Part shown: positions 2,689 through 64,000 of the stretch, piece by piece
Position numbering within the stretch: position 1 is the first letter of the stretch
How the letters are laid out: each line of letters begins with the position of its first letter
NCBI GenBank assembly: GCA_045606665.1
Contig: JAZUSI010000064.1
Coordinates: forward strand, 7,627 to 71,626
Length of the DNA: 64,000 bases
From: Christensenellaceae bacterium
GTDB taxonomy: Bacteria > Bacillota > Clostridia > Christensenellales > Borkfalkiaceae
Direction: 5' to 3'
Made by a program: the position numbers and the translations under genes
Notes under the pieces: model-generated
Seen by the model: the letters and a program-made list of their open reading frames with translations, nothing else
Databases searched by the model: none
Told to the model about the DNA's origin: nothing

Positions 2689-4083
2689 TTATAACAAATC
2701 GATTTGATATCCCAAGTAATCTCTAAAAGCAATTTCAACTGCCTTGCCCCAATGTCCTTTTGTAATAGCAACGTGGTGGCGATAACCGTTCATTGCCATA
2801 TATTCAAGCAACTTGTCTGCATTTTCCTTTTCGAAAACAGAACCACAACCGAAGAAACAAGATGGAAGTTCATCTTCTGTAAATTTTCCGTCTGCAGCAA
2901 ATGAACAGAGTTTGCCATTTTCAGTTTTGAAACTTCCGATAGTAATATCGCCCGTTAAATATTTACCCTTGTTGATACCAACGCCACTGCCTTCGCCAAA
3001 AGATTTTTTGAACATCAAGTGTTCTTCAATTTCGCCCTTGCCTGCCATAAGTGAAATAGGTGCTGGACCACAGTGGAAGAATATAATCTTATTCTTATCG
3101 TTGTTGTAGTTGTTGTTTACGTCAAGAAGCATTACAGGGTAATCAGCCGCAAGACCGATTGCACGCATCATAACAGCGTTTGTCACGTCTAATTCGCAAG
3201 CAGCAGCAATGCCACGTTCGTTTAATTCGCCCAAAATTAAGCAAGGTGCAATGCCGTATGCTTTTTGAAGTTCATCCCAACAACGAATAGCAACAGCATC
3301 AAGGTCAAGGTCTTCAATAATTTGGTCAATAACAACACCTAACTTTGCAATGTTTTCAAGTTTTTCACTTGGATACTTGCCAAAATTAGAAAGTGAAGCA
3401 TATTTTTCCTTTTTTGCTTGTAATTTGTCAGCATCAACGTTTTCCATTTTTGCAAAAACATTTGCAAGGTCAACGGTTTCCACGTTAATACCTTTAGATT
3501 GAAAAGCAATTTCATCAAATCTAACAGTCTTAAATGCTGTTGTTCTTGCGCCTATTGCACCAACGTTAAACTTCTTCATACCCCTAACGACTCTACACAC
3601 ACCAGCAAAAATTCTTAAGTCTTCGCTGAATTCTTCCGTCAATGGGTGCACGCAGAAACTGTTTGTCAACGTGTATTTAATTCCTATTTGTCTTAAGACG
3701 TTGCACATTGCAAGTTTACCACACATTGCGTCACGTCTGTGTGCAAAATCCATTTTATCCATTTCGTCTGGGAAGGCTTGTACAAGAATAGGAACGTTTA
3801 TATCCTTAAATGCAACAGATGCACCGTTTTCATCACCAAAGTTTGGAAGCGAAAGAATAACGCCGTCATACTTACCCTTGTTTTGTTCTAAAAAGTCAGC
3901 AAACAATTTGCCTTCTGCAATTGTTTCAACTGCTCCGTATCTTGTAAGGCTTTCGTCCATTATGATATAATCATAACCATTGTTATCAAGTGCTTTGCAC
4001 ATTGATTCACGCGCTTCTGCTATTAGTTCCCCCGGGAAAAATCCACGATTACCAAAATAAAGCGCAAAAGTCGTTTTTTTCAT
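2689..4083 (-). CDS. L-fucose/L-arabinose isomerase family protein
   Basis: I trimmed the start to the ATG at 4083 (MKKTTFALYFGNRGFFPGEL), which follows an AGGAG RBS. The N-terminus and overall length resemble FucI-like isomerases. Confidence 0.65.
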   Translation of the reverse strand: MKKTTFALYFGNRGFFPGELIAEARESMCKALDNNGYDYIIMDESLTRYGAVETIAEGKLFADFLEQNKGKYDGVILSLPNFGDENGASVAFKDINVPILVQAFPDEMDKMDFAHRRDAMCGKLAMCNVLRQIGIKYTLTNSFCVHPLTEEFSEDLRIFAGVCRVVRGMKKFNVGAIGARTTAFKTVRFDEIAFQSKGINVETVDLANVFAKMENVDADKLQAKKEKYASLSNFGKYPSEKLENIAKLGVVIDQIIEDLDLDAVAIRCWDELQKAYGIAPCLILGELNERGIAAACELDVTNAVMMRAIGLAADYPVMLLDVNNNYNNDKNKIIFFHCGPAPISLMAGKGEIEEHLMFKKSFGEGSGVGINKGKYLTGDITIGSFKTENGKLCSFAADGKFTEDELPSCFFGCGSVFEKENADKLLEYMAMNGYRHHVAITKGHWGKAVEIAFRDYLGYQIDLL

Positions 4084-4255
4084 AATAATTCTCCTATTTT
4101 TATTTAGTTTTCTTATTGTCAAAATCATTATAGTACATATATAAATAAATTTATAGTAACTATTATCCTTAAAAATAGAAAAATCTTCCCGAAAAAAGCG
4201 AATATAACATTGTATATTCTTAAAAACTATGATATAATCAATAAAAGGTGAAAAG

Positions 4256-5104
4256 ATGTATATTAACTTTAAGATTGATAAATTAGACGAATTATTGTTG
4301 GACTTTTATAGGCTAACAGGGCTTACCATAAGCGTTTGGGACAACAAGATGAATCAACTCAGTTTTCAGCCTAAAGAGATGTGTAGGTTCTGCAAAAAAA
4401 TTAAAAGCAATAAAAAGGGAAAGGAGCGCTGTTACGTTAGCGACAAAGAAATTTTTGCAAAGTGTGCGAAAACGGGCAAAGTGGAAACCCACCGTTGCCA
4501 TGCGGGACTGATTGATACGGCTGTGCCTATAAAGTTTAACGACGTTATTTTGGGGTATCTTATTTTTGGGCAAGCCGTGGATGGAAATGAAACAGATATA
4601 GAAAATAAAATTAAGAGTTTAGGCTTAGACCTTGGCGTGGATAACAAAGAACTATTAGAGCTGTACAACGAATTGAAGCCTTATGATGCAAAAAAAATAC
4701 AAGCCGCAGGCAATATATTAAAGACTGCAGCTAGATATTTATGGCTTTCCGATTATATAGAAATTGGCTATAATACGTTGGCATCGCAAATCGACGATTA
4801 TATTAAGAGTAATCTGTCGGAAAAACTTTCATTGCAAAAAATTTGCTTAGACCTTGGAATTTCTAAAAATAGGCTTTACGAGATTTCCAATAAGCAATTT
4901 AATATGCCTATAGGCTCGTATATCTCCCACCTAAGAGTGTTAGAGGCAAAAAATCTTTTAACTTCCACGTCCCTTTCGGTTAGAGAAATAAGCGAAAAGG
5001 TTGGTTTTGAAGATTATAATTATTTTATTAAGCTATTCAAAAATAACGTGGGTGCAACGCCACTTAAATATAGAAATGGTTTTCCATTTAATTTACACGA
5101 ATAA
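4256..5104 (+). CDS. AraC-family regulator with an N-terminal PocR-like sensor domain
   Basis: The C-terminal HTH region reads SVREISEKVGFEDYNYFIKLFKNNVGATPLKYR. The N-terminal half is Cys/His-containing and PocR-like. The gene is divergent from the isomerase operon. Confidence 0.8.
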   Translation: MYINFKIDKLDELLLDFYRLTGLTISVWDNKMNQLSFQPKEMCRFCKKIKSNKKGKERCYVSDKEIFAKCAKTGKVETHRCHAGLIDTAVPIKFNDVILGYLIFGQAVDGNETDIENKIKSLGLDLGVDNKELLELYNELKPYDAKKIQAAGNILKTAARYLWLSDYIEIGYNTLASQIDDYIKSNLSEKLSLQKICLDLGISKNRLYEISNKQFNMPIGSYISHLRVLEAKNLLTSTSLSVREISEKVGFEDYNYFIKLFKNNVGATPLKYRNGFPFNLHE

Positions 5105-7008: not shown

Positions 7009-9214
<2,206 letters not shown>

Positions 9215-9452: not shown

Positions 9453-11741
9453 CTAACGGCCGAATTTTCTCATAAGATAAGCTTTCATTTCCTCGTTTGA
9501 CATTTGCTTTTTCTCTTCTTTTTTCTTGTTTGCGTTAATTCTGCCTTCTTTTCTTTCCCTATCGGTTTTTTGGTTCGTAACGGCTATGCCATTTGGCATA
9601 TCGGCAGTTTTCATAGTGAGAGAAATTTTCTTCTTTACAGTATCAACACCCAACACTTTAACCTTAACTAAATCGCCCACTTTCAAAACGTCTGACGGGT
9701 GCTTAATATATCCATCACTTATTTGAGAGATGTGAACGAGACCATCTTGATGCACGCCTATATCCACGAACACACCGAAGTCAATAACGTTTCTAACCGT
9801 ACCATTTATTTCCATACCTTCTTTCAAATCGTTTAAGTCCATAAGGTCGCTTCTTAAAATTGGTTTTGGCAAGCTGTCACGGATATCTCTGCCCGGTTTT
9901 AAGAGTTCTGCCACTATATCCTTTAAGGTTGGAACGCCTATTTCACAAGTTTCTGCAGTCTTTTCCCAACTCTTTTTTTCAATTCTTTCTCTAATATCGG
10001 TTATTTTACCGTCTGCAACGTCAGAAAGCGCGTATCCCGTAAAGTCTAAAAGTTTTTCAACTGCGCCATAACTTTCTGGGTGAACACCCGTATTATCCAA
10101 TACGTTTCCACCGACAATTCTTAAAAAACCTGCGCATTGTAAAAACGCCTTTTCGCCTAGCTTTTTAACCGATAACAACTCTTCTCTTTTCTTAAAAGGC
10201 TTTTCTGCCCTATATTTAACAATCTCTTTTGCTATTCCCTTATTTAAACCTGCAACGTATGAAAGTAAGCTTGGCGATGCCGTGTTTAAGTCAACGCCAA
10301 CGCTGTTAACGCAATTTTCAACAACGCCACCCAAAACTTCTTCAAGTCTATTTTCTGGCATATCGTGTTGGTATTGCCCTACACCGATTGACTTAACGTC
10401 TATCTTAATAAGTTCAGCAAGTGGGTCTTGAAGTCTTCTTGCAATAGACACAGCGCTTCTTTGAGCTGGTTCAAAGTCTGGGAATTCTTCAGCTCCCAAC
10501 TTACTTGCACTATATACTGATGCACCTGCTTCGTTTACAACGGCATATTGAATATCAAGTCCATTTTCTTTTATCATATTTGCAACAAAGATTTCCGACT
10601 CTTTACTTGCAGTACCGTTACCTATAGATACGATTGAGACGTTGTGTTTTTTAATAAGTTTAATTAAAGTTTCACTTGCTTCAGCGATTTTATTTTGTGG
10701 TGGGGTTGGGAATACCACAGCCGTGTCTAAAACGTTACCCTCTGCATCGATGACAGCAATTTTGCAGCCCGTTCTATACGCTGGGTCAAGCCCCAAAATA
10801 GTCTTTCCCTTTAGTGGTGGTTGAAGCAACAATGGGCGAAGATTAACTTCAAACATTTTGATTGCTTGTTCGCTTGCCTTTTCGGTAAGTTCGCTTCTAA
10901 CTTCCCTTTCAAGTGATGGGAATATAAGCCTTGAATAAGCATCTGCACAAGCATTTTTAACGATATTAGAACACTCGTTATCACCCTTGACGTATCCACT
11001 CGTTATAATTTCAACGAATGCTTCAGTTTCAACAACAACGTTTACCTTTAAGCACTCTTCCTTTTCGCCACGGTTAATCGCCAAAATCCTATGTGGTGGC
11101 ATCTTTTCTATTTTTTCGTTATATTCAGCGTACATATCGTACGTTTTGGCATTTTCATTTTCCAAAAGTTTGCAAGTGATTGCACCCACTTCAAAGATTT
11201 TCTTTCTTAAAACCTTTCTTAGTTCTGCATCATCAGAAACCTTTTCAGCAATAATATCGCTTGCGCCTGCAATTGCACTCTCTATACTATCCACGCCCTT
11301 TTCTTCGCTTATAAATTCAGTTGCCTTTGCGTTTAAGTCTAAAGATTTATCTTGCTCTAAAATAAATTCAGCAAGTGGCAAAAGTCCCTTTTCAGTTGCA
11401 ACTGATGCCCTTGTCTTTCTCTTTTGCTTAAATGGACGGTAAACGTCCTCAGCTTCGGTCAAAGTTTCAGCTCCTGCAAGAGCGACCATAATCTCATCAG
11501 TCATCTTGCCTTGCTCGGTAATAGCGTCTGCTATCTCTTGTTTTCTCTTATCTAAATTTCTTAAATATTTAAGTCTATCTGCAAACTCTCTTAAAACTTG
11601 GTCATCACAAGAACCTGTCATTTCCTTACGATATCTCGCAATAAAAGGTATAGTATTCCCTTCGTCAATAAGATTGATAATGTTATTAGAGTGATCTGCC
11701 CTTAGGTTAAATTCTTTGCTTAATTTTAATGCATAGTCCAT
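9453..11741 (-). CDS. tex: Tex-like transcription accessory protein with a C-terminal S1 domain
   Basis: 762 aa. The N-terminal motif is IPFIARYRKE and the C-terminal S1 motif is GTVRNVIDFGVFVDIG. Confidence 0.9.
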   Translation of the reverse strand: MDYALKLSKEFNLRADHSNNIINLIDEGNTIPFIARYRKEMTGSCDDQVLREFADRLKYLRNLDKRKQEIADAITEQGKMTDEIMVALAGAETLTEAEDVYRPFKQKRKTRASVATEKGLLPLAEFILEQDKSLDLNAKATEFISEEKGVDSIESAIAGASDIIAEKVSDDAELRKVLRKKIFEVGAITCKLLENENAKTYDMYAEYNEKIEKMPPHRILAINRGEKEECLKVNVVVETEAFVEIITSGYVKGDNECSNIVKNACADAYSRLIFPSLEREVRSELTEKASEQAIKMFEVNLRPLLLQPPLKGKTILGLDPAYRTGCKIAVIDAEGNVLDTAVVFPTPPQNKIAEASETLIKLIKKHNVSIVSIGNGTASKESEIFVANMIKENGLDIQYAVVNEAGASVYSASKLGAEEFPDFEPAQRSAVSIARRLQDPLAELIKIDVKSIGVGQYQHDMPENRLEEVLGGVVENCVNSVGVDLNTASPSLLSYVAGLNKGIAKEIVKYRAEKPFKKREELLSVKKLGEKAFLQCAGFLRIVGGNVLDNTGVHPESYGAVEKLLDFTGYALSDVADGKITDIRERIEKKSWEKTAETCEIGVPTLKDIVAELLKPGRDIRDSLPKPILRSDLMDLNDLKEGMEINGTVRNVIDFGVFVDIGVHQDGLVHISQISDGYIKHPSDVLKVGDLVKVKVLGVDTVKKKISLTMKTADMPNGIAVTNQKTDRERKEGRINANKKKEEKKQMSNEEMKAYLMRKFGR

Positions 11742-15678: not shown

Positions 15679-16698
15679 CTAATTTAAGTATATTTTTTCT
15701 GCACGTATTGCAGATTTTGTCAAAATTTCATAACTAATCGTGTCGTATTGTTTACCTAAAAGGTCTGCGTTATCCATAATTAACACGCCTTTGTTTGTTA
15801 CTTTAGGTTTTTTTATGGCAGTAATATCCATACAGCGATTGTTAACTTGCCCCAAAATATTTTTGCGCATAAACCCATCTGCATAGCCAACTCTGACAAG
15901 ACCTATGCTAGCATCTTGTTCTAGCCTAAAACTCCCATAAAGACAGCTTTCTCCCTTCTTGAGTTCGCGAGATTTTAATAACGGCGCATAAATTTTCATA
16001 ATGGGCAAAACTTTTATATATTGGCTTTCAAACGGTTTATAGCCGTACAGCAAAATACCAATCCTTGCCATATCACTCTTTAACCCCAACAAAAAACCAC
16101 TACTTGCAGATATGTGACATACTGCTTTATTATTATAACCTTTAATCAAATTATTTGCAAGTAAAAATTTATTTTGCACAGATTTAAGTTGTTTTTTATC
16201 TACAAAATCACCTATATGCGTAAACATTCCATCTAAAGTAAGATATTTTGAATTAAATACGTATTTTGCAAGGGCATTTAATTCTTTTAAATTATCCACC
16301 CCTAGCCTATTCATTCCCGTATTGAACTTCAGATGGATTTTTGCTTTTCTATTTTGGTTTCGACACGCTTTTTCAATATTTTTTAAGGTAGAAAACCGGC
16401 TTGCGCTTAAAGTTAAACCATAAAAAACTGCGCTTTCTATATCAAGTGCAAAAGGTGGATTTAAAACCAAAATATCTTTCTTTATTCCACAAAGTCTTAG
16501 CGATATTCCCTCCTCAACCAGTGCCACGGCATATGAATCGCAATAAGGGTAAAGTGCTGAGGCTATTTTTTCAGCGCCATGCCCGTAAGCATCAGCTTTA
16601 ACAACAGCACAAAATTTTGTGTTTTTATTTAATTTTTTCTTAATCTCAGTAGCATTAAATCGCAATTTTTTTAAATCTATATAAGCTTTGTTTAACAT
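15679..16698 (-). CDS. alr: alanine racemase
   Basis: The PLP-lysine motif AVVKADAYGHG is present. Confidence 0.85.
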   Translation of the reverse strand: MLNKAYIDLKKLRFNATEIKKKLNKNTKFCAVVKADAYGHGAEKIASALYPYCDSYAVALVEEGISLRLCGIKKDILVLNPPFALDIESAVFYGLTLSASRFSTLKNIEKACRNQNRKAKIHLKFNTGMNRLGVDNLKELNALAKYVFNSKYLTLDGMFTHIGDFVDKKQLKSVQNKFLLANNLIKGYNNKAVCHISASSGFLLGLKSDMARIGILLYGYKPFESQYIKVLPIMKIYAPLLKSRELKKGESCLYGSFRLEQDASIGLVRVGYADGFMRKNILGQVNNRCMDITAIKKPKVTNKGVLIMDNADLLGKQYDTISYEILTKSAIRAEKIYLN

Positions 16699-19737: not shown

Positions 19738-19961
19738 ACATTTTCTCCATCAATTTCCAACCGACAATAAACTTTTCACAATCTTATTTATTTTATCATA
19801 TCAATAAGTTTTGTGTCAACGATATGAAAAAATTTTTTAAATCTAATATATAAACATATGTATTAGTAATTTTATTATACATAAAAGACACTAAAAAACA
19901 TAGCAATTATAATCCTTAAAAATAGTAAAATCTTCCTTAAAAAAACGGATAAAATACATAC

Positions 19962-36328: not shown

Positions 36329-36457
36329 ATAATTTCATTATATATATTTATGCAAGCGTAAATAAAAATAGAAAAGAACGTTTCGTTCTTTACTGACAAA
36401 TATTTCTTGTTTTTTGTTAGTATATAAAAAACAAACTCCGTTAGTTGCCACAAAAAC

Positions 36458-36647
36458 AAAAAAAGTGTGTAATTCGTTTTGAGTTACACACTTTTGTTTT
36501 CATATAATTTATTAACCTCTGTAATAATTAATCAAACAGCCTTTTAGAATAATTTGCTTTTCAGCATCTGTTAAAGCATCCATTTTAAGAGTGATTTCTC
36601 TTTGTGTTTGGCCGATAACTGTTGCCTTAAATTCTTTTACACCACTT
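36458..36647. repeat. left copy of a ~190-bp direct repeat: a relic of the aconitase 3' end (last ~45 codons) plus its terminator
   Basis: It aligns base-for-base with 37260-37449 at an offset of 802, with about nine mismatches by eye. The relic still reads in frame: ...[41 protein letters not shown]. Confidence 0.9.
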
Positions 36648-36955
36648 TATTCCATTTCCAAAATTTCTTTTTCTAACTCTCCTAAAAATTCTTTAAATCT
36701 TCTTATAGCAAAAAGTAAAACTCTTTTCTCTTTACTATCCTTGCAATAAACGTCTTCGCTTTTCTTAACCACCTTTAAATCTGGTCGTTTGCTTGCAGGT
36801 CTTCCTTTTTTGCTAAAATATGGCTCAACCTCTCCTCGTTCAACCTGTTTTATCTTTTTAATTAAAAGGTCTTTTTTGTATAAACTTGGCGATTTTACCC
36901 CTATTTCCCTTGCATATGCTCTTAAATAATGTAAATCTACTTTTCTATAATCCAC
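36647..36955 (-). CDS. small protein with an N-terminal Rho_N/SAP-like helix-extension-helix motif (102 aa)
   Basis: LHYLRAYAREIGVKSPSLYKKDLLIKKIKQV resembles the Rho N-terminal domain pattern. A paralog lies at 42817-43116. Confidence 0.6.
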   Translation of the reverse strand: MDYRKVDLHYLRAYAREIGVKSPSLYKKDLLIKKIKQVERGEVEPYFSKKGRPASKRPDLKVVKKSEDVYCKDSKEKRVLLFAIRRFKEFLGELEKEILEME

Positions 36956-37057
36956 TACTTTTCTCCCTGAATAAAAATTTATAATACGCCCAAATTATAT
37001 CAAGAAGATTTCTTCTTGTCAAGCACGCTTTAGAAGTTTTCTTCTATAATGTTAGGT

Positions 37058-37258
37058 ATGAAAATAGGCGAAAAGATAAAAGAATTAAGAATAGAAAACA
37101 ATCTATCGCAAAGCAAACTTGCAAATGCAATAGAGGTGAGCCAAAAGGCAATTGATTTTTGGGAAAGATCGATTAATGAACCAAAAGCAAGTTATATAAT
37201 AAAACTTGTCAAGTTTTTTAATTTAACTTTTAATGAATTTTTTGAAGATGTTGAATAA
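37058..37258 (+). CDS. XRE-family HTH regulator
   Basis: The sequence begins MKIGEKIKELRIENNLSQSKLANAIEVSQKAIDFWE. I prefer the ATG at 37058 because a TATAAT hexamer at 37045-37050 overlaps the ORF-track start. Confidence 0.8.
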   Translation: MKIGEKIKELRIENNLSQSKLANAIEVSQKAIDFWERSINEPKASYIIKLVKFFNLTFNEFFEDVE

Positions 37259-37259
37259 T

Positions 37260-37449
37260 AAAAAAAGTGTGTAATTCGTTTTGAGTTACACACTTTTGTT
37301 TTTATATAATTTATTAACCTCTGTAATAATTAATCAAACAGCCTTTTAGAATAATTTGCTTTTCAGCATCTGTTAAAGCGTCCATTTTAAGAGTGATTTC
37401 TCTTTGTGTTTCGCCAATAACCGTTGCCTTAAATTCTTTTGCGCCGTTT
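37260..37449. repeat. right copy of the ~190-bp direct repeat (the functional aconitase 3' end plus terminator)
   Basis: See 36458-36647. Confidence 0.9.
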
Positions 37450-39482
37450 TCAATGCCTTTCTTAACGTCCTTAATCAAGATATATTCATCAACGTTAAAG
37501 TCATTTTTGTCAGCAAGAAGTGGGAGCATGCCCCAGTTGATAAGGTTACTGCGATATCTCTTGGTTGCATATTCATAAGCAATATTTGCTACCCCTCCTA
37601 AAACTCTTTGGCAAGATGCCGCTTGTTCCCTTGCAGAGCCGTCACCCGGTTTAATCGAGCAAACTACACTGCCGTATGAAGTCTTGCTTTCATCAAGTCC
37701 TAAATGAGCTGGGAACTCTCCGTCACGAACAGCCTTTGCTCTGCCCACGTACATTGGGTCTTTTCTTGAAAGGGCAAATTCTGCAAGTTTAAGTGGGTTT
37801 GAACGATATGATGACGTTTCGCCTGATGGAATAAGTTCATCAGTTGTAGTTACAGGATCATTAATAACTGAAACAACTTTCAATAATAGGTCGTCTTTAA
37901 GCGCTTGCATTTTTGGCCAGTCGGCAATGTTTGGTCCATAAACGAGTGGTTTTTCTTGTTCGCCATTGCCTACAGCATTAAACACTCTCGCCCTATAAAT
38001 CTTATTGTCGAAACGATATTTTTTAACCTTATTTGAATAGATTTCATCCATAGCAGAAGTGATTGCGCCACCGTTTTTAGCAGTTGCAGCAATACTTCTT
38101 GCATCCATAAGTGCAACTGCAGAAAGTTGTCCGTTTGCAGGTTTGCTACCTTCTCTACTTTCAAAGTTTCTGGTTGTGTGGCGAATTGATAGACCGTTAT
38201 TTTGTGGAACGTCGCCTGCACCAAAGCAAGGACCACAAAAAGCTGTCTTTATAACCGTGCCGTTATCGATGAGTTTTGAGATATATCCACTGTCAACAAG
38301 TCCTTTATAAACAGGTTGGCTTGATGGGTAAACGTCAAGCGTAAAGTCATTATTGTTGATATCCACGTCACCCAAGATATTTGATGCTTCAGCTATATTT
38401 TCATACATACCACCAGCACAGCCAGCGATAACGCCTTGTTCAACGTAAACCTTTCCATCACGAATTTTATCGGTGAGTTTGAATTCACCTTTTCCTTCAG
38501 GAAGAAGTTTTTGACCTGCGATTTCACACTCTCTCAAGAGTTCGTATGGGCGAGATAAAAATTCACGGATAGTATATGCGTTTGATGGGTGGAAAGGAAG
38601 GGCTATCATTGGTTCAACCTTTGACAAGTCGATTACAATTCCCCTATCGTAATAAGCGCCGTCTTCTGGATTCATTTCCTTGTATTCTTCTGGTCTGCCG
38701 TGTTCAACATAATAACTTCTAGTTTTTTCATCAGTTTGCCAAATAGAAGATAGACAGGTCGTTTCGGTAGTCATAACGTCAATGCCGTTTCTAAAGTCCA
38801 TAGATAAACCTTTGATACCGTTACCAACGAATTCCAAAATTCTATTCTTAACAAAACCTTGCTTAAAGGTTGCCTTAACGAGAGCAAGCGCAACGTCGTG
38901 TGGGCCAACGCCCTTTCTCAATCTGCCCTTTAAGTTAACTGCAACTATTTCAGGCATATCAAGGTCATAAGTTCTATTTAAGAGTTGCTTAACGAGTTCT
39001 GGACCACCTTCACCAACAGCAAGAGTGCCGAGCGCCCCGTATCTTGTGTGTGAGTCAGAGCCCAAAATCATTGCGCCACAAAATGCGCGCATTTCTCTCA
39101 TATATTGGTGGATAACTGCTAGGTGTGGTGGAACGAATGCCCCACCGTATTTTTTTGCAGCAGAAAGACCAAACACGTGGTCGTCCTCATTTATAGTTCC
39201 CCCAACTGCGCAGAGTGAGTTGTGGCAGTTTGTAAGCGTATAAGGAATAGGGAATTTTTCTAGTCCCGATGCCTTTGCCGTTTGGATAATACCAACGTAA
39301 GTTATATCGTTTGAAGTGATTTCATCAAATTTAACGTTAAGTTTCGTATCGTCACCACTAACGTTGTGCGCTGATAAAATCTTATAAGCCATTGTGCCTT
39401 TTTGCGCGTTTTTATCTATTTTTTTTGCCTTTACTAATTTGCCGTTTTGATAATATACGCCTTTTTCAATAAGTTTAATCAT
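37314..39482 (-). CDS. aconitase-family Fe-S hydro-lyase (aconitate hydratase-like)
   Basis: 722 aa with GSDSHT, GCAGG and CGPCFGAGD cluster-ligand motifs and a C-terminal swivel-like domain. Confidence 0.8.
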
Positions 39483-40137: not shown

Positions 40138-40166
40138 TTGACAAGTCTTATTTTTGTGAGTAAACT
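40138..40166 (+). promoter_or_regulatory. sigma-A promoter of the mgtE leader
   Basis: TTGACA, a 17-nt spacer, then TAAACT. Confidence 0.55.
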
Positions 40167-40205
40167 ATAGTTGTAATTTAAAACAAGTCTTTTATCTATG
40201 AAAAT

Positions 40206-40340
40206 AATTGATTAGTTTAAAACGGTTTAATGATAAAAACACAAGAAAGACTAGTGTTCTTGTAAGGGCGCATACCTGTAAGGTATGAAACCGAACAAAA
40301 CACGAAGTATTTTGAAGCGTTTTTCCATTAAAAATCAATT
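40206..40340 (+). ncRNA. unclassified ~135-nt structured element, copy A
   Basis: It shares the TTGTAAGGG and AACCGAACAAAACACGAAGTA blocks, at identical 29-nt spacing, with 48125-48261. A 9-bp closing helix covaries between the copies. Confidence 0.45.
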
Positions 40341-40359
40341 AGGTGAAGAGATAAAAGAC

Positions 40360-40515
40360 AATATACAATCCGGTAGGTAAGGCTACCATAGGGATACGGA
40401 CTACTGCCGCAAAATAGTGGAGACACTACTAGATGGTATGAACAGACCACGTCGAAACCAAGGCGTGATTTAACGTAGTTTTCATCGCCCTACGGTGCTA
40501 AAGCCAGCATGGTTA
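40360..40515 (+). promoter_or_regulatory. M-box (ykoK) magnesium riboswitch
   Basis: The signature GGTAGGTAAGGCTACC...GATACGGACTACTGCCGCAAAATAGTGGAGACAC...GGTGCTAAAGCC matches the M-box core. Terminator-like hairpins with T-runs follow at about 40514-40537 and about 40542-40572, and mgtE lies downstream. Confidence 0.85.
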
Positions 40516-40603
40516 ATCGTTAAAAGCGATTTTTTGTATTTCCTGCCGAATTATTTTCAGCGGGATTTTTTATTGTAAAAAATTAGAAAAAGGAGAATTT
40601 ATT

Positions 40604-41965
40604 ATGACGGAAGAAATGAAAGTATTTTACGAAAGATTATCTTTTTGTTTTGAAACGCGAAAGTATGCCGACTTAAGAATTCTTCTTCTCGACATGGAAC
40701 CGGTAGATATCGCACACTACCTTGAAAACAATTTAGATGATAAAGAGCAGTTAATGTTCTTTAGAATTTTACCAAAAGAACTCGCCAGTGACGTTTTCGT
40801 TGAAATTGATAGCGATTTACAAGAAACGCTTATCAAGGCGTTTACCGATAAGGAACTTAAAGCCGTTATTGACGATATGTATCTTGACGATACGGTTGAC
40901 ATCATTGAAGAAATGCCTGCAAACGTGGTTAAAAGAATTCTTAAAAACTCCACTCCAGAGGATAGAAAACAAATAAACCAACTTTTAGAATACCCTGAAG
41001 ATTCGGCTGGATCTATTATGACCACCGAGTATATATCTTTCTCGCCATCTACCACCATTGAAAGTGCGTTTGATAAAATTAGGCGCACGGGCGTTAACAA
41101 AGAAACCATTTACACTTGTTACGTTGTGGACAGAAAGAAGCGCTTGGTCGGTGCTGTGTCCGTTAAAGATATGCTTTTGGCAGAAAAAAGCGCTATTATT
41201 GCCGACGTTATGGACTCAAATGCTGTGGTTGTTAACACGCTTGACGATAAGGAAAACGTTGCTTTAATGTTCTCTAAGTACGATAAACTTGCCCTCCCTG
41301 TTATCGACAAGGAAGGGTGCTTAGTCGGTATAATCACGGTTGATGACGCTGTGGACGTTATCCAAGAAGAAGCAACCGAAGATATCCAAAAACTCGCAGC
41401 TGTGTTGCCAAGCGAAAAACCTTATTTGAAACAATCGGTATTTTCCATTTGTAAAGCGAGATTGCCTTGGCTTATTTTACTATTAATAACTTCTACCTTT
41501 ACCAGCTTGATTTTGGCAAGTTATGAAAGTAAACTCTCGACAATCTTACTTGCTTTCGTGCCTATGCTTATGGGTACTGCCGGTAACGCAGGTGGTCAAA
41601 CTTCGGTTACAATCGTGCGCGCAATCGCCGTTGGCGACGTGGAATTTAAGGATATATTTAGAGTTATCTTAAAAGAACTTTTAGTTTCTTTGGCAATCGG
41701 CTTAATCGTGGGACTTATTTGTTTTGGCAAAATTATGCTCATAGATAGGATATATAGCGAAATTGCATTGAACGAAGCATTTGTTATCTCGCTCGTTTGT
41801 ACCATAACTTTGATAATGGCAAAGTTGGTCGGCTGTATCTTGCCACTTCTTGCTAAAAAAATTAAACTTGACCCTGCTGCCGTTGCAAGTCCACTTATGA
41901 CGACTATTGTCGATGCTTTGGCGCTTATAATTTACTGCACCATTTCAATAGCAATTTTAGTTTAA
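40604..41965 (+). CDS. mgtE: magnesium transporter MgtE
   Basis: 453 aa with an N domain, tandem CBS domains and a C-terminal TM domain carrying GNAGGQ. Confidence 0.95.
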   Translation: MTEEMKVFYERLSFCFETRKYADLRILLLDMEPVDIAHYLENNLDDKEQLMFFRILPKELASDVFVEIDSDLQETLIKAFTDKELKAVIDDMYLDDTVDIIEEMPANVVKRILKNSTPEDRKQINQLLEYPEDSAGSIMTTEYISFSPSTTIESAFDKIRRTGVNKETIYTCYVVDRKKRLVGAVSVKDMLLAEKSAIIADVMDSNAVVVNTLDDKENVALMFSKYDKLALPVIDKEGCLVGIITVDDAVDVIQEEATEDIQKLAAVLPSEKPYLKQSVFSICKARLPWLILLLITSTFTSLILASYESKLSTILLAFVPMLMGTAGNAGGQTSVTIVRAIAVGDVEFKDIFRVILKELLVSLAIGLIVGLICFGKIMLIDRIYSEIALNEAFVISLVCTITLIMAKLVGCILPLLAKKIKLDPAAVASPLMTTIVDALALIIYCTISIAILV

Positions 41966-42535: not shown

Positions 42536-42736
42536 TTATCCATTTATTAAATCATCAATAGATATGCCCAAAATTAAAGAAAGTTGGCGCAAAAATGAAA
42601 TATTCGGCTCAGTTCTTCCCTGCTCCCAATTAGCATAACAACTTTCTACAACATTCAGTTCACTTGCAATTTGCTTTTGAGTTAATCCCAATTCTTTTCT
42701 TGTACTTTTAAGATTTTCACAAAATTTTTTATCCAT
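42536..42736 (-). CDS. XRE-family HTH regulator
   Basis: 66 aa containing LGLTQKQIASELNVVESCYANWEQG. Confidence 0.85.
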   Translation of the reverse strand: MDKKFCENLKSTRKELGLTQKQIASELNVVESCYANWEQGRTEPNISFLRQLSLILGISIDDLING

Positions 42737-42816: not shown

Positions 42817-43116
42817 ATGGATTATACAAAAGTAAATATACATTATTTAAGAGCGTATGCAAGGGAAATAGGCGTTAAGTCGCCAACTTCTTACAAGAAA
42901 GACGTTTTAATTCAAAAAATTAAGCAAGTTGAACGTGGTGAAATTGAACCATTTTTTTCTAAAATAGGTAGACCATCAAACGAAAAAACTATTTGCAAAC
43001 CAATGCTACAAAAGGTTAAAACTGAAAGTCACGATAAATCGTTACTGCTATTTGTGGTAGATAGATTTAAAGAATTTTTAGACAAATTAGAAAAGGAAAT
43101 AGAAGATAAATTTTAG
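42817..43116 (+). CDS. small Rho_N/SAP-like protein (99 aa), paralog of 36647-36955
   Basis: Its first ~50 residues (MDYTKVNIHYLRAYAREIGVKSPTSYKKDVLIQKIKQVERGEIEPFFSK) are near-identical to the N-terminus of the other copy. Confidence 0.65.
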   Translation: MDYTKVNIHYLRAYAREIGVKSPTSYKKDVLIQKIKQVERGEIEPFFSKIGRPSNEKTICKPMLQKVKTESHDKSLLLFVVDRFKEFLDKLEKEIEDKF

Positions 43117-46754: not shown

Positions 46755-48092
46755 CTATTTTCCCACACAAAACTTTGAGAAAATATTGTTTATAATATCT
46801 TCGGTTGCAGTCTTTCCCGAAATTTCGCCAAGCGCATCCCAACCATCTTTAACGTCGATAGACAAAATATCAAGTGGCACAATATCGATGTTAGAAAGTG
46901 CTTGTCTAAACTTATCATTTGCTTTAGAGAGTGCATCAAAGTGCCTTTCTTCACACAAAAAGTCTCCGTTTAAATCTATGCCACCACCAATGGTTTTTTG
47001 ATATAAAAGATCTTTTAACTCATCTAAATTTTGTCTTGTCAACGCAGAAATGCAAATATCTGCCCTTTTATCAACCATATTCGTCTTATCACACTTGTTT
47101 TGAGCAACGATAAGGTTTTCATTTTTTACAACTTCATAAATTTTATCATCTTCAAAATTAATATCGTTTCCGTCAAAAACCAAAAGTATAACGTCACTTT
47201 GCTTTAACACGCGCTTAGAGAGTTCCACGCCAAGTTCTTCAATTTTATCGTCGCTCTCACGAATACCAGCAGTATCAAAAAAGTTAAAGGTAACGCAGTT
47301 AATGTCAATGCTACCTTCAACTATATCACGCGTTGTTCCTGCAATATCCGAAACAATTGCCTTTTCATAGTTTAAAAGTGCGTTGAGAAGCGAACTTTTA
47401 CCCGTGTTTGGCTTTCCAACGATTCCCACCTTAACCCCGTCTTTAAGCGTTCTACCAAGCCTATAAGTGCCTTTTAATTTTTCAACTCTGTCAATTACTT
47501 CGATAAGCGCATTCCTAACGTTAATTGTAGAAACTATTTGTAAATCTTCTTCAGGGAAGTCCATATCAGCATCGATTTCACTCAATGCGTCGGTAATTTT
47601 GTCTTGAAGTTCGGTTATTTCCTTTGTTAACTTTTCTCTATAAAGATAATATCCTGCCTTAACCCCACTAACGCTTTCACTGTTTATCATATCGATAAGC
47701 CCTTCTGCAGAGGATAAAGATAATTTTCCGTTCATGAAAGCGCGCTTAGTGAACTCGCCGTTATTGGCAAGCCTTGCGCCAAGCGACAAGGTTTTCCTTA
47801 ATATACCCTTTGCAATGGCAACCCCACCGTGCGAGTGGAATTCCACAACGTCTTCGCCAGTAAAACTCTTTGGTCCTTTAAAAAAGACCATCAAGCCGTG
47901 GTCAGAAAAACCATCGGCTTGTATTTCACCAACGTACATCTTATTTGGTTCAAAGTCTTTTACGTTGACCTTGCCAGCAGGTAAAAACATTTTACCTGCG
48001 ATTTCTTTTGATTTAGTTCCACTAATTCTTATAACTGCAACCCCACTTGCAACAAGAGCTGTGGATATTGCAGAGATTGTGTCTAAAGGCAT
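46755..48092 (-). CDS. mnmE: tRNA modification GTPase MnmE
   Basis: I trimmed the start to MPLDTISAISTA, which follows an AAGGAAAG RBS. The G domain carries GKPNTGKSSLLN and the C-terminal tail is FCVGK. Confidence 0.93.
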   Translation of the reverse strand: MPLDTISAISTALVASGVAVIRISGTKSKEIAGKMFLPAGKVNVKDFEPNKMYVGEIQADGFSDHGLMVFFKGPKSFTGEDVVEFHSHGGVAIAKGILRKTLSLGARLANNGEFTKRAFMNGKLSLSSAEGLIDMINSESVSGVKAGYYLYREKLTKEITELQDKITDALSEIDADMDFPEEDLQIVSTINVRNALIEVIDRVEKLKGTYRLGRTLKDGVKVGIVGKPNTGKSSLLNALLNYEKAIVSDIAGTTRDIVEGSIDINCVTFNFFDTAGIRESDDKIEELGVELSKRVLKQSDVILLVFDGNDINFEDDKIYEVVKNENLIVAQNKCDKTNMVDKRADICISALTRQNLDELKDLLYQKTIGGGIDLNGDFLCEERHFDALSKANDKFRQALSNIDIVPLDILSIDVKDGWDALGEISGKTATEDIINNIFSKFCVGK

Positions 48093-48124
48093 AATAACTT
48101 TCCTTAGGCTTTTGAACAAAAAAT

Positions 48125-48261
48125 GACTGATTAGTAATCTTTACGTTTTGGTGAGAAAAATACAAAAAGAACAAACGATTTTGTAAGGGACATACCCCCC
48201 GTGATCTGTAACCGAACAAAACACGAAGTAATTTGCAATATTTTTCCTCCAAAAATTAGTC
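48125..48261 (+). ncRNA. unclassified ~135-nt structured element, copy B
   Basis: See 40206-40340. The strand is assigned by analogy with copy A. Confidence 0.4.
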
Positions 48262-48285
48262 AGAGTTTGTGGCATAAGCCTTTAT

Positions 48286-49212
48286 TTAATTTCTATTATC
48301 AAACTCATCAAATGGGTCTGTATTTTTATTGTTATCAAATTCATTAAATGGTTCGCCTGGATTGGCGTCACCCTTTTGGTCAAACTCACTAAATGGACTT
48401 TCAGGTTGCTTTGGCGCTTGATTTGGTCGATTATAACCACCTTGATTATATGGATTGTTATAAGGATTCTGGTATGGATTTTGATAACCTTGATATCTTG
48501 AACGAATATATTCGTTATAATCTATCGCGTCTTTATTCCTACAAGCAAATATGAATATTGCAAGCGCAGGTGTAATAAATATAGACAATAAACTTGCGAG
48601 CATAAAGTGTTGTGGCAAATATTTTCTAAAGAACGCAAAGTAGGCAGAAATTGTAATGACCACACTTGCAAGACCAAAAATGGCTGAGAATATATCTATA
48701 ACTTCTAAAATCTTGTTGACTTTAGCCACCGGCAATCCAAATGGAAGAATACGTTTTGCAACGTAAATACCCATCAGTTCATCTATAGATGAATATAAAA
48801 GTAATTCTTCGCCTATTTGTTCAATCGAACCAATGTAAATTGTTCCACCTTCGATAAGCGAATATTGAAACAATGGAAAATAAACTATAAAGTTTGCGAC
48901 TATAGTCAACAATTGCGACACTGCAAAAACAACGCACAGCCAAATTGCGACCTTTTCATAAACCATATTAAATAGCCTTGCTTTGCCTATCAATTTACAT
49001 AAAACGTAAAACCAGACAAGTGGTATCCAAGCCAAGAACGCTTTTTGTACGTTTTGTCTTTTAGCAAGCATGAATAGCCCGATTGAACGCAACACGTAAA
49101 GCGTGATTATAACTGCAAGGCTTATGCCAAGCCCTGCCCAAATATGTCCGTTAGTTATTGACATTGTGGTAAACGTTCCCGTTGATACGTCCATATCAAA
49201 AGTTGTTGCCAT
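48286..49212 (-). CDS. hypothetical polytopic membrane protein with a low-complexity Y/N/P-rich tail
   Basis: 308 aa. The C-terminal tail reads YQGYQNPYQNPYNNPYNQGGYNRP and carries three PFxEFD motifs. Confidence 0.65.
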   Translation of the reverse strand: MATTFDMDVSTGTFTTMSITNGHIWAGLGISLAVIITLYVLRSIGLFMLAKRQNVQKAFLAWIPLVWFYVLCKLIGKARLFNMVYEKVAIWLCVVFAVSQLLTIVANFIVYFPLFQYSLIEGGTIYIGSIEQIGEELLLYSSIDELMGIYVAKRILPFGLPVAKVNKILEVIDIFSAIFGLASVVITISAYFAFFRKYLPQHFMLASLLSIFITPALAIFIFACRNKDAIDYNEYIRSRYQGYQNPYQNPYNNPYNQGGYNRPNQAPKQPESPFSEFDQKGDANPGEPFNEFDNNKNTDPFDEFDNRN

Positions 49213-60833: not shown

Positions 60834-60912
60834 ATCAAACTAACTGCGACTTCTTCCCGTGACCGTCCTAATCGTTCACGATTAGCGGTCTGGGATATGG
60901 TTGTTGCTTACA
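60834..60912 (+). ncRNA. 5S-rRNA-like mini element, copy 1
   Basis: The sequence is ATCAAACTAACTGCG...GACCG-hairpin-CGGTCTGGGATATGGTTGTTGCT. Its 3' part nearly matches the 3' end of the true 5S gene. A second copy lies at 63021-63093. Confidence 0.45.
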
Positions 60913-60914
60913 AA

Positions 60915-60950
60915 AGAAAAGCACCCATATTAAAGGATGCGTTCTTTTTG
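60915..60950 (-). terminator. terminator of the 81-aa repeat-protein gene
   Basis: On the minus strand: the stem GCATCC/GGGTGC followed by a U-rich run. Confidence 0.55.
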
Positions 60951-60987: not shown

Positions 60988-61233
60988 TTAATCCTTTATA
61001 TATCCTACAATTGACCAACTTGAATTATATACTGTATCTCCTTTTATATACCCCTCAATCGACCAGTTGGAATTATATATTGTTCCTCCTTGTAGGTACC
61101 CAATAATCGACCAGCTTGAATTATATATCGTTCCGTTTCTTAAATATCCTATAATTGACCAATTTGAACTATATATTGTATCACCTTGTATATAACCAAA
61201 ATTAGACCAATTAGAACCAAATAATGTTGCCAT
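60988..61233 (-). CDS. small repeat protein: five tandem ~16-aa GxTIYxSNWSIIGY units (beta-flower-like)
   Basis: The sequence is MATLFGSNWSNFGYIQGDTIYSSNWSIIGYLRNGTIYNSSWSIIGYLQGGTIYNSNWSIEGYIKGDTVYNSSWSIVGYIKD, with a GGAG RBS. Confidence 0.7.
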   Translation of the reverse strand: MATLFGSNWSNFGYIQGDTIYSSNWSIIGYLRNGTIYNSSWSIIGYLQGGTIYNSNWSIEGYIKGDTVYNSSWSIVGYIKD

Positions 61234-61355
61234 TTTATTTCTCCTTTTTTATTTTGTACTTTTTTTATTACATTTAACCGTAATATCAATGCAATCTGTT
61301 CTACCATCCTTGCATTTAAACTTTAACTTGATATTTTTCCCTTCAAAATATTGCT

Positions 61356-63020: not shown

Positions 63021-63093
63021 ATCAAACTAACTGCGGCTTTTTCACGAACACAATCATTTATGATTGTCGGTTCGGGATATGGTTGTTACTGCA
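63021..63093 (+). ncRNA. 5S-rRNA-like mini element, copy 2
   Basis: The sequence is ATCAAACTAACTGCGG...GAAC-hairpin-GTTCGGGATATGGTTGTTACTGCA. It is convergent with the real 5S gene across a shared terminator. Confidence 0.45.
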
Positions 63094-63095
63094 AC

Positions 63096-63128
63096 AAAAA
63101 AAGAACCACTTTTGTGGTTCTCTTTTTT
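63096..63128. terminator. bidirectional terminator shared by the 5S rRNA gene and mini element 2
   Basis: The stem AGAACCAC/GTGGTTCT has an A-run and a T-run on either side. Confidence 0.8.
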
Positions 63129-63135
63129 GTTTGGA

Positions 63136-63252
63136 TGCAGCAACAACCTATTTTCCCGGACCGTCGCCAGTCAAGTATTTTCGGCGCTAGTGAGCTTAAC
63201 TTCTGTGTTCGGTATGAGAACAGGTGGGACCTCACCGCTATCGTCACCGCAA
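63136..63252 (-). rRNA. rrf: 5S ribosomal RNA
   Basis: The minus strand reads TGCGGTGACGATAGCGGTGAGGTCCCACCTGTTCTCATACCGAACACAGAAGTTAAGCTC...GGTTGTTGCTGCA. It has the canonical CCGAAC and AGTTAAGC blocks, and helix I closes. Confidence 0.93.
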
Positions 63253-63464
63253 TGGTATATCTCGGAATTCCTTCCGTTAATATCTCTTCTCAGGTGGATA
63301 TATTCTATCACACCCTCTATCTCTCCGTCAATTTTTTTTCACGGTAGATTCACAACTACATAGATTTTTTTCTCTTCCATTAAGTTCTTTTTTAGCTCGG
63401 CTAAAATATCTTAATATAGTTAGTTTCGTATACTTTAATTCGCTCTTCTTTCTCAATCTCTTGA

Positions 63465-64000
<536 letters not shown>

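Follow-up and report, generated by a model that had tools for sequence, protein, structure and literature searches.

ISSag10 (MTnSag1) is an insertion sequence of the IS1595 family found in streptococci and enterococci, in which it carries lnu(C). It is reported to make 8-bp AT-rich direct repeats (PMC6233522), and TTCTTATT and TTATTTTT are the examples in the literature. A MITE of the same family is also on record: the ISHwa6-associated element of Haloquadratum walsbyi is 165 bp long, has inverted repeats of 25 bp and direct repeats of 8 bp, and was reported in 7 copies per genome (PMC3852290). Other structured bacterial MITEs, such as bcr1 of the Bacillus cereus group and ERIC, Correia/NEMIS, RUP and BOX, are non-coding repeats of about 100–170 bp that form long RNA hairpins. 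According to a review, the bcr1 repeats are transcribed and their structure is kept by compensatory base changes (PMC3184786).

In this study, we analysed a stretch of DNA of 64,000 nucleotides (hereafter the window) in which the 5' leader of the magnesium transporter gene mgtE contains an element that occurs again beside mnmE. Our results indicate that this element is very probably a MITE, that is, a non-coding and non-autonomous DNA transposon of about 170–185 bp, with ends derived from an ISSag10-like member of the IS1595 family. The features of the two sites are as follows.

40138 to 40166, plus strand: sigma-70-like promoter for the mgtE leader, TTGACA-17-TAAACT, kept in relatives whether or not they have the putative MITE
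40187 to 40359, plus strand: putative MITE copy A, 173 bp, in the mgtE 5' leader, with the promoter on one side and the M-box on the other
40187 to 40197, plus strand: left terminal inverted repeat of copy A, perfect 11-bp pairing with 40349 to 40359
40205 to 40213, plus strand: inner inverted repeat of copy A with an xxxTGATT motif, part of an IS1595-type end, pairing with 40333 to 40341
40289 to 40314, plus strand: 26-nt block in the apical part, common to copies A and B, AACCGAACAAAACACGAAGTAWTTTG
40349 to 40359, plus strand: right terminal inverted repeat of copy A, partner of 40187 to 40197
40362 to 40520, plus strand: M-box (magnesium) riboswitch aptamer, RF00380, 90.7 bits, beginning 2 nt past the putative MITE
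40604 to 41965, plus strand: mgtE magnesium transporter gene, with MgtE_N, CBS and MgtE domains
46755 to 48092, minus strand: mnmE (trmE), start codon 14 nt from the left end of copy B
48099 to 48106, no strand: left 8-bp target-site duplication of copy B, TTTCCTTA, overlapping the ribosome-binding region of mnmE
48107 to 48280, plus strand: putative MITE copy B, 174 bp, between mnmE and an upstream gene of 308 aa, antisense to both
48281 to 48288, no strand: right target-site duplication of copy B, TTTATTTA in the window and TTTACTTA in the relatives L015 and L008

The first-pass annotation of this DNA had described a structured element of about 135 nt. The element is longer, as copies A and B extend over the full intervals listed above, and the 10 copies compared span 170–185 bp with arms that pair from the very termini in all of them. 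The shared sequence blocks on which that annotation was based were all found in both copies and in the same order, with starts in A and B at 40209 and 48128 for TGATTAG, 40232 and 48153 for GAKAAAAAYACA, 40260 and 48181 for TTGTAAGGG, 40289 and 48210 for the 26-nt block, and 40320 and 48241 for TTTTTCC. The two long blocks are 29 nt apart, start to start, in copy A and copy B alike, and the window contains the 21-nt core AACCGAACAAAACACGAAGTA at exactly two places, where 0.01 occurrences would be expected. The perfect 11-bp inverted repeat that had been noted around copy A is real. So is the 9-bp closing helix, although its coordinates had been placed one base off: it is formed by TAATTGATT/AATCAATTA at 40205–40213/40333–40341 in copy A and by TGACTGATT/AATTAGTCA at 48124–48132/48254–48262 in copy B, where it shows two compensatory changes and one G.U pair. 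The predicted shape is a long imperfect hairpin, a rod of about 57 pairs containing neither a multi-helix junction nor a conserved pocket-like loop. Copy A folds with −49.7 kcal/mol (z = −7.5 against shuffles), and the fold of copy B is weaker (z = −2.0 against shuffles).

A conserved open reading frame was not found in any of the six frames across the copies, and promoter and terminator scans gave no promoter-like or terminator-like site inside either copy. The impression that the element belongs to no familiar RNA class was borne out by a search of Rfam 15, in which neither copy matched a family even at E<=10. A small protein or toxin encoded on the minus strand was considered for the 48-aa and 44-aa reading frames of the window and was rejected, because frames and stops are not conserved across copies. 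An integron attC site was also rejected; by eye, the GCCTAA-like motifs are wrongly oriented, and the centre is conserved where that of attC varies.

The termini of the family, GGCTCTGTCACAA…TGATTTTTGACG, match the left end of ISSag10, which is 1725 bp long. A blastn search of plasmids with the L004 copy, one of the homologues described below, returned one match, located exactly at the left terminus of ISSag10 in pL8 of Enterococcus faecalis. Its E value is only 0.01 on its own, and it carries weight because of its position exactly at the IS terminus. ISSag10 in pL8 has TTATAAAA on each side, and is annotated as an IS1595-like ISSag10-family transposase together with lnu(C); this transposase has the DDE_Tnp_IS1595 and Zn_ribbon_IS1595 domains. 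The left end of ISSag10 reads GGCTCTGTCACAACAAATGGTTGATTTTTGACGAGAAATA, and the reverse-complemented right arms of L004 (GGCTCTGTCACAAACTCTGACTGATTTTTGACGGAAAAAT) and L001 (GGCGCTGTCACATCATCTGGTTGATTTTTAACGGACAAAATA) are close to it. The first 14 terminal bases agree with ISSag10 at 13 positions in L002 and L004, while L001 agrees at 24 of 28 positions and the similarity runs on through TGATTTTTGACG. The likeness covers the terminal ~40 nt, where ISSag10 has GGCTCTGTCACAAC AAATGGTTGATT TTTGACGAGAAATA. Both arms of the element resemble the left end of the IS, and for this reason the whole element is quasi-palindromic. With such ends, it is to be read as an ordinary mobile insertion and not as a second sensor.

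The element differs from ISSag10 in several respects. It is about 173 bp long and has no open reading frame, whereas ISSag10 encodes a transposase and lnu(C); both of its arms resemble the left end of the IS; its central ~70 nt have no ISSag10 counterpart; and its hosts are uncultured Clostridia, whereas those of ISSag10 are Lactobacillales. The size class, the 8-bp duplication, the repeats of about 25 bp and the IS family are shared with the MITE of Haloquadratum walsbyi. That element has an archaeal host and an unrelated sequence, and against its copy number per genome we saw one or two copies per sampled region. With bcr1 and the other structured bacterial MITEs, the element has in common its size range, its non-coding hairpin nature, its flanking direct repeats and a genomic distribution that is not conserved, and with bcr1 also the compensatory base changes. 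It differs from bcr1 in that bcr1 has 5-bp direct repeats, a two-stem-loop cruciform and no assigned parent IS, whereas the element here forms one rod, has 8-bp duplications and can be assigned to a parent IS family.

IS6/IS26 and ISL3 elements have GG(C/T)TCTGT... ends and 8-bp duplications. A parentage in these families was considered and was superseded by the match to the ISSag10 terminus. Searches with the ISSag10 transposase (tblastn) detected no IS1595-type transposase in the window or in 21 fetched loci, and a search of the window and the fetched loci for the terminal repeat pattern of a parent IS gave chance-level matches only. The termini of copy B are GGCTTTTGAAC...GGCATAAGCC, and those of copy A are of a diverged form, GTCTTTTATCT...AGATAAAAGAC. 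To judge by these termini, copy A, its orthologues and partly also L003 and L013 look like a separate or decayed subfamily.

Target-site duplications were assessed by comparing 8 bp on each side, with the termini set as GGC…GCC. The clearest cases are the following.

L001: AAAAAATT on the left and AAAAAATT on the right, 8 of 8 positions
L004: TTTTATAT on the left and TTTTATAT on the right, 8 of 8
L002: TAATTAAT on the left and TAATTATT on the right, 7 of 8
Copy B in L015: TTTCCTTA on the left and TTTACTTA on the right, 7 of 8
Second copy of L001, about 60 bp and deleted: ATTTATAA on the left and ATTTGTAA on the right, 7 of 8

Over eight insertions, the flanks agree at 50 of 64 positions, whereas permuting the right flanks among loci gives a mean of 25.1; the maximum in 14,833 such derangements was 40 of 64, and none reached 50. 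The duplications are AT-rich and 8 bp long, as are those of ISSag10. The duplication of copy A is poor (3 of 8 in the window and 6 of 8 in L020), and L013 also shows no convincing one; the termini of both have diverged from the ISSag10-like consensus.

Homologues were scanned for by exact match to a 19-mer from the shared block. The GTDB species genomes contained five true homologues (L001–L005), in Candidatus Scatosoma, Christensenellaceae and Clostridia MAGs, as well as two chance matches in Bacteroidota; the metagenome contigs contained one (L013), and the viral contigs contained none. A blastn search of phages gave only a spurious 33-nt match. The hosts are thus six other uncultured Clostridia (Christensenellales-like MAGs). 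Scans of this kind over-select the invariant core, and searching with the 26-nt block accounts in part for its apparent invariance; copies found by synteny, which are free of this bias (copy A of L020 and copy B of L015), carry 2–4 changes in the block. Copy number appears to be low because each GTDB genome matched gave one exact 19-mer match. Neither nhmmer nor a covariance model built from nine copies detected any additional copy when applied to the window and to 225 kb of related loci. A weak and gapped covariance-model match at 63057–63177 on the minus strand of the window (25 bits) is probably only a generic hairpin.

Within single regions, there are two copies in the 64-kb window and two, one of them deleted, within 400 bp in L001. 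This second L001 copy (4370–4428, minus strand) is a mini-copy of about 60 bp in which an internal deletion has joined the arms. It lies directly after a terminator hairpin and about 100 nt upstream of the full copy at 4073–4264. A promoter-like TTGACT-17-TATAAT stands between the two, and the full copy thus also lies in a 5' leader, that of an MFS transporter gene.

The neighbours of the homologues all differ: an MFS transporter, nucleotidyl transferase/upp, Mur ligase/ddl, GNAT/coaE and ruvX/DUF1292, compared with mgtE for copy A and mnmE for copy B. A common class of downstream gene, as a leader element would have, did not emerge, and unrelated genes lie beside each copy. The orientation relative to the neighbours in eight contexts is sense in three, antisense in four and divergent in one. 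Neither a cis-regulatory RNA nor an sRNA gene at a syntenic locus would be expected to show differing neighbours and mixed orientation.

Relatives of the window were found through MgtE homologues, with proteins 88–98% identical to that of the window and mgtE DNA identities of 88–90% for L008, L015 and L020. The occupancy of the two sites in these relatives is as follows.

L008: MgtE 98%; copy A present; copy B with an internal deletion of ~125 nt, only the ends remaining
L020: MgtE 97%; copy A present; copy B site cleanly empty
L015/L016: MgtE 95%; copy A absent (empty site); copy B present
L017/L018: MgtE 95%; copy A absent (empty site); contig ends before the copy B site
L019: MgtE 90%; copy A absent (empty site); contig ends before the copy B site
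L009: MgtE 88%; copies A and B both absent, both sites empty

Copies A and B are thus present or absent independently of each other. The empty copy B site of L020 reads TTTCCTTA|ATTTTTAT, which is a single TTTCCTTA followed by the sequence that comes after the right repeat in filled sites. In L008, positions 15926–15980 hold copy B minus about 125 internal nucleotides, and a short hairpin of the two ends is left, which is an example of in-place decay of the element.

At the mgtE site, the promoter that the first-pass annotation had recognised was found as a promoter-like sequence, and the M-box downstream of the element was recovered by Rfam. The M-box is nearly invariant across all relatives compared. 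Where copy A is missing, the same promoter lies about 25 nt upstream of the same M-box, and therefore copy A has entered a promoter/M-box/mgtE unit that already existed, and it is dispensable, in agreement with the earlier proposal that the element was inserted between promoter and riboswitch. The same observation leaves the reading as a tandem ligand sensor unsupported. All three lineages with the insertion have an intact and conserved M-box and mgtE, so that the insertion is at least tolerated. A C-rich insertion, CACCCACCCCCCCAC, was seen at 9950–9975 of L008, between the M-box terminator region and the ribosome-binding site of mgtE, in this relative only.

These observations agree with the view that the element is a mobile insertion, as the first-pass annotation had offered among its options, considering the scattered contexts, the empty sites, the 8-bp target duplications and the termini homologous to an IS1595-family IS. 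We propose that an IS1595-type DDE transposase encoded elsewhere would bind the terminal repeats of about 25–40 bp (GGCTCTGTCACAA-N-TGATT-TTTGACG), mobilise the element in trans and insert it into AT-rich intergenic DNA, duplicating 8 bp of the target. With both arms resembling the left end of the IS, the product would be a quasi-palindrome able to fold into the ~57-pair rod. Copy A would have landed about 12–15 nt past the mgtE transcription start, just 5' of the M-box, in an ancestor common to L008 and L020, and copy B would have entered the gap between mnmE and the gene upstream of it. Should the promoter be active, the mgtE transcript would begin about a dozen nucleotides before the MITE, which would give the 5' end of the leader a self-contained 173-nt hairpin by co-transcription. 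Such a hairpin may alter the stability or processing of the mgtE mRNA.

The arms of the hairpin covary. RNAalifold predicted 57 pairs along the whole rod, 23 of them changed on both sides; shuffles gave 13.1 such pairs and slid controls no more than 10. In the count on the named structure, 91% of the cells are paired, compared with 83.7% in shuffles and 37–45% with the partners slid. For the whole family, the covariation score reaches 0.278, whereas shuffles give 0.147 and slid partners no more than 0.092. The orthologous copies A of the window and L020 differ in 32 columns: 14 are unpaired, and the others comprise seven full pairs with compensatory changes, one one-sided change and three that break pairs. 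Copy A of the window is 97.7% identical to that of L008 (9560–9736), while the flanking non-coding DNA is only 72–78% identical and the mgtE DNA 90%; recombination, conversion or selection could be behind this. The first-pass annotation had pictured a plain MITE as having target-site duplications and lacking helix covariation. The duplications are present, but strong covariation is present too, and arm covariation and copy A identity exceed the neutral decay of a dead MITE.

These patterns raise the possibility that the MITE arrived by transposition and was then exapted, with its hairpin now kept by selection at the RNA level, although we consider this unlikely. The mgtE leader could be an example: as a stabiliser of the 5' end or as a site of RNase III processing, the hairpin would tune the expression of the transporter together with the M-box. 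This idea draws on the covariation scores, on the predominance of compensatory over broken pairs between the window and L020, and on the high identity of copy A in L008 relative to its surroundings. It also agrees with the fold predicted for the whole leader, where the 173-nt hairpin forms a domain of its own and leaves the M-box undisturbed, with the full copy of L001, which likewise lies between a promoter-like site and a downstream gene, and with the transcribed and compensated bcr1 repeats described above (PMC3184786). On the plus strand, G.U pairs outnumber A.C pairs by 18 to 10, which points the same way, but this asymmetry is too weak to decide.

On the other hand, equal covariation is found in antisense copies and in copies that are undergoing deletion, such as copy B of L008 and the mini-copy of L001. 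Relatives with MgtE 88–95% identical (mgtE DNA ~88% for L015) keep the same promoter and M-box in the absence of copy A, so it is dispensable. In addition, the variant states of copy A in L020 coincide with those of L003 at another locus, which fits conversion between copies or subfamily differences and not local selection. Template-switch correction of quasi-palindromes can also give rise to paired changes without selection. The covariation could thus come from selection at the RNA level or from correction of the palindrome in DNA, and selection on an RNA or DNA hairpin, conversion between copies or template-switch correction may account for these patterns. The fuller proposal, that the hairpin is under RNA-level purifying selection, that the MITE was exapted as a portable 5' stabiliser or processing module reshaping mgtE expression, and that the apical block is a recognition site for a protein or RNase, appears quite improbable to us.

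A free-standing sRNA gene that moves by horizontal transfer, for instance a divergent 6S-like rod RNA with two paralogues, is a very unlikely reading of these data. The rod-like shape, the length of about 175 nt, the covarying closing stems and the failure of any Rfam family to account for the element would suit such a gene, and a possible −35/−10 pair was seen by eye just 5' of copy B (TTGCAG-17-ATAATA at 48068–48096). However, the promoter and terminator scans were negative at copy B, and copy A has no terminator ahead of the M-box, so that the suggestion of an sRNA in the first-pass annotation found no transcription signals of the element's own. Close relatives lack the element or have it in deleted form, which is unlike a housekeeping RNA, and its insertions occupy, in one orientation or the other, tight intergenic gaps within operon-like series of genes. 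An sRNA gene would not be expected to have ends homologous to those of ISSag10 or to be flanked by 8-bp duplications. A 6S-like or other rod-shaped sRNA was rejected on these transposon ends, on the loss in close relatives and on the Rfam result, in which 6S did not match even at E<=10.

A second cis-regulatory sensor (a tandem riboswitch or leader element) that controls mgtE together with the M-box, as the first-pass annotation had suggested, can be dismissed as most improbable: the element does lie on the sense strand between the promoter-like site and the M-box with a stable and covarying fold, but seven other contexts link it neither to mgtE nor to any class of genes, half of its copies are antisense to their neighbours, copy B stands between two minus-strand genes, the M-box and mgtE occur in relatives that do not have it, its termini are those of a transposon and are accompanied by target duplications, and it is a plain rod with no junction or pocket-like loop. 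Its likeness to tandem riboswitch arrangements is positional only, in that it shares a 5' leader with a validated riboswitch class, and it differs from them in having no conserved downstream gene, no aptamer-like architecture and no indispensable role in relatives. The M-box is the only recognisable sensor in the mgtE leader, and nothing shows that the MITE hairpin senses anything.

Other small variable segments were seen in the window and its relatives. A two-gene cassette of about 800 bp lies just 3' of the aconitase gene (36647–36955, minus strand, and 37049–37258, plus strand) and encodes a protein of 102 aa, whose counterparts in relatives are Rho_N-like, and a divergent XRE-type HTH protein of 69 aa. 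Direct repeats of 197 nt (36452–36648 and 37254–37450, 94% identical) enclose the cassette, and the second of them is the 3' end of the aconitase gene itself. The cassette is missing from L008 and L009 and is present once in L015, and it looks like another small mobile insertion. A second pair of an HTH gene and a gene of about 99 aa lies downstream of mgtE (42536–42736, minus strand, and 42817–43116, plus strand). Extra 222-aa, 129-aa and HTH genes, which the window does not have, are found between mgtE and the Amidase_6 gene in L015 (11439–13393) and L020 (11454–12849), and this region is a hotspot of small variable cassettes. At 61001–61240 of the window there are at least four tandem 48-nt units, 72–73% identical to the first, which are possibly a repeat within a coding region and lie about 2 kb from the 5S/23S rRNA genes at 63135–64000 (minus strand). 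A 56-nt repeat at 60870–60925 and 63052–63107 is 75% identical, with one copy adjoining the 5S rRNA gene. Two intergenic repeat pairs, at 4114–4207 and 19861–19954 (94 nt, 70% identity) and at 7037–7080 and 7164–7207 (44 nt, 84% identity), may represent additional families of small repeats or else shared regulatory regions.

Taken together, the identification of the element as a very probable MITE removes a false lead, as the mgtE leader does not contain a new riboswitch or a tandem sensor. Moreover, it illustrates that compensatory changes in a quasi-palindromic mobile element are, by themselves, no evidence of a functional RNA. The relatives with and without copy A provide a natural comparison, in which a 173-nt hairpin is present or absent between promoter and M-box, for the effects of 5' leader insertions on riboswitch-controlled genes. 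With this finding, the mobilome of uncultured gut Clostridia (Christensenellales-like) would gain a MITE family that is undescribed, low in copy number and tied to the ISSag10 branch of IS1595; in streptococci and enterococci, that branch is otherwise known as a carrier of lincosamide resistance.
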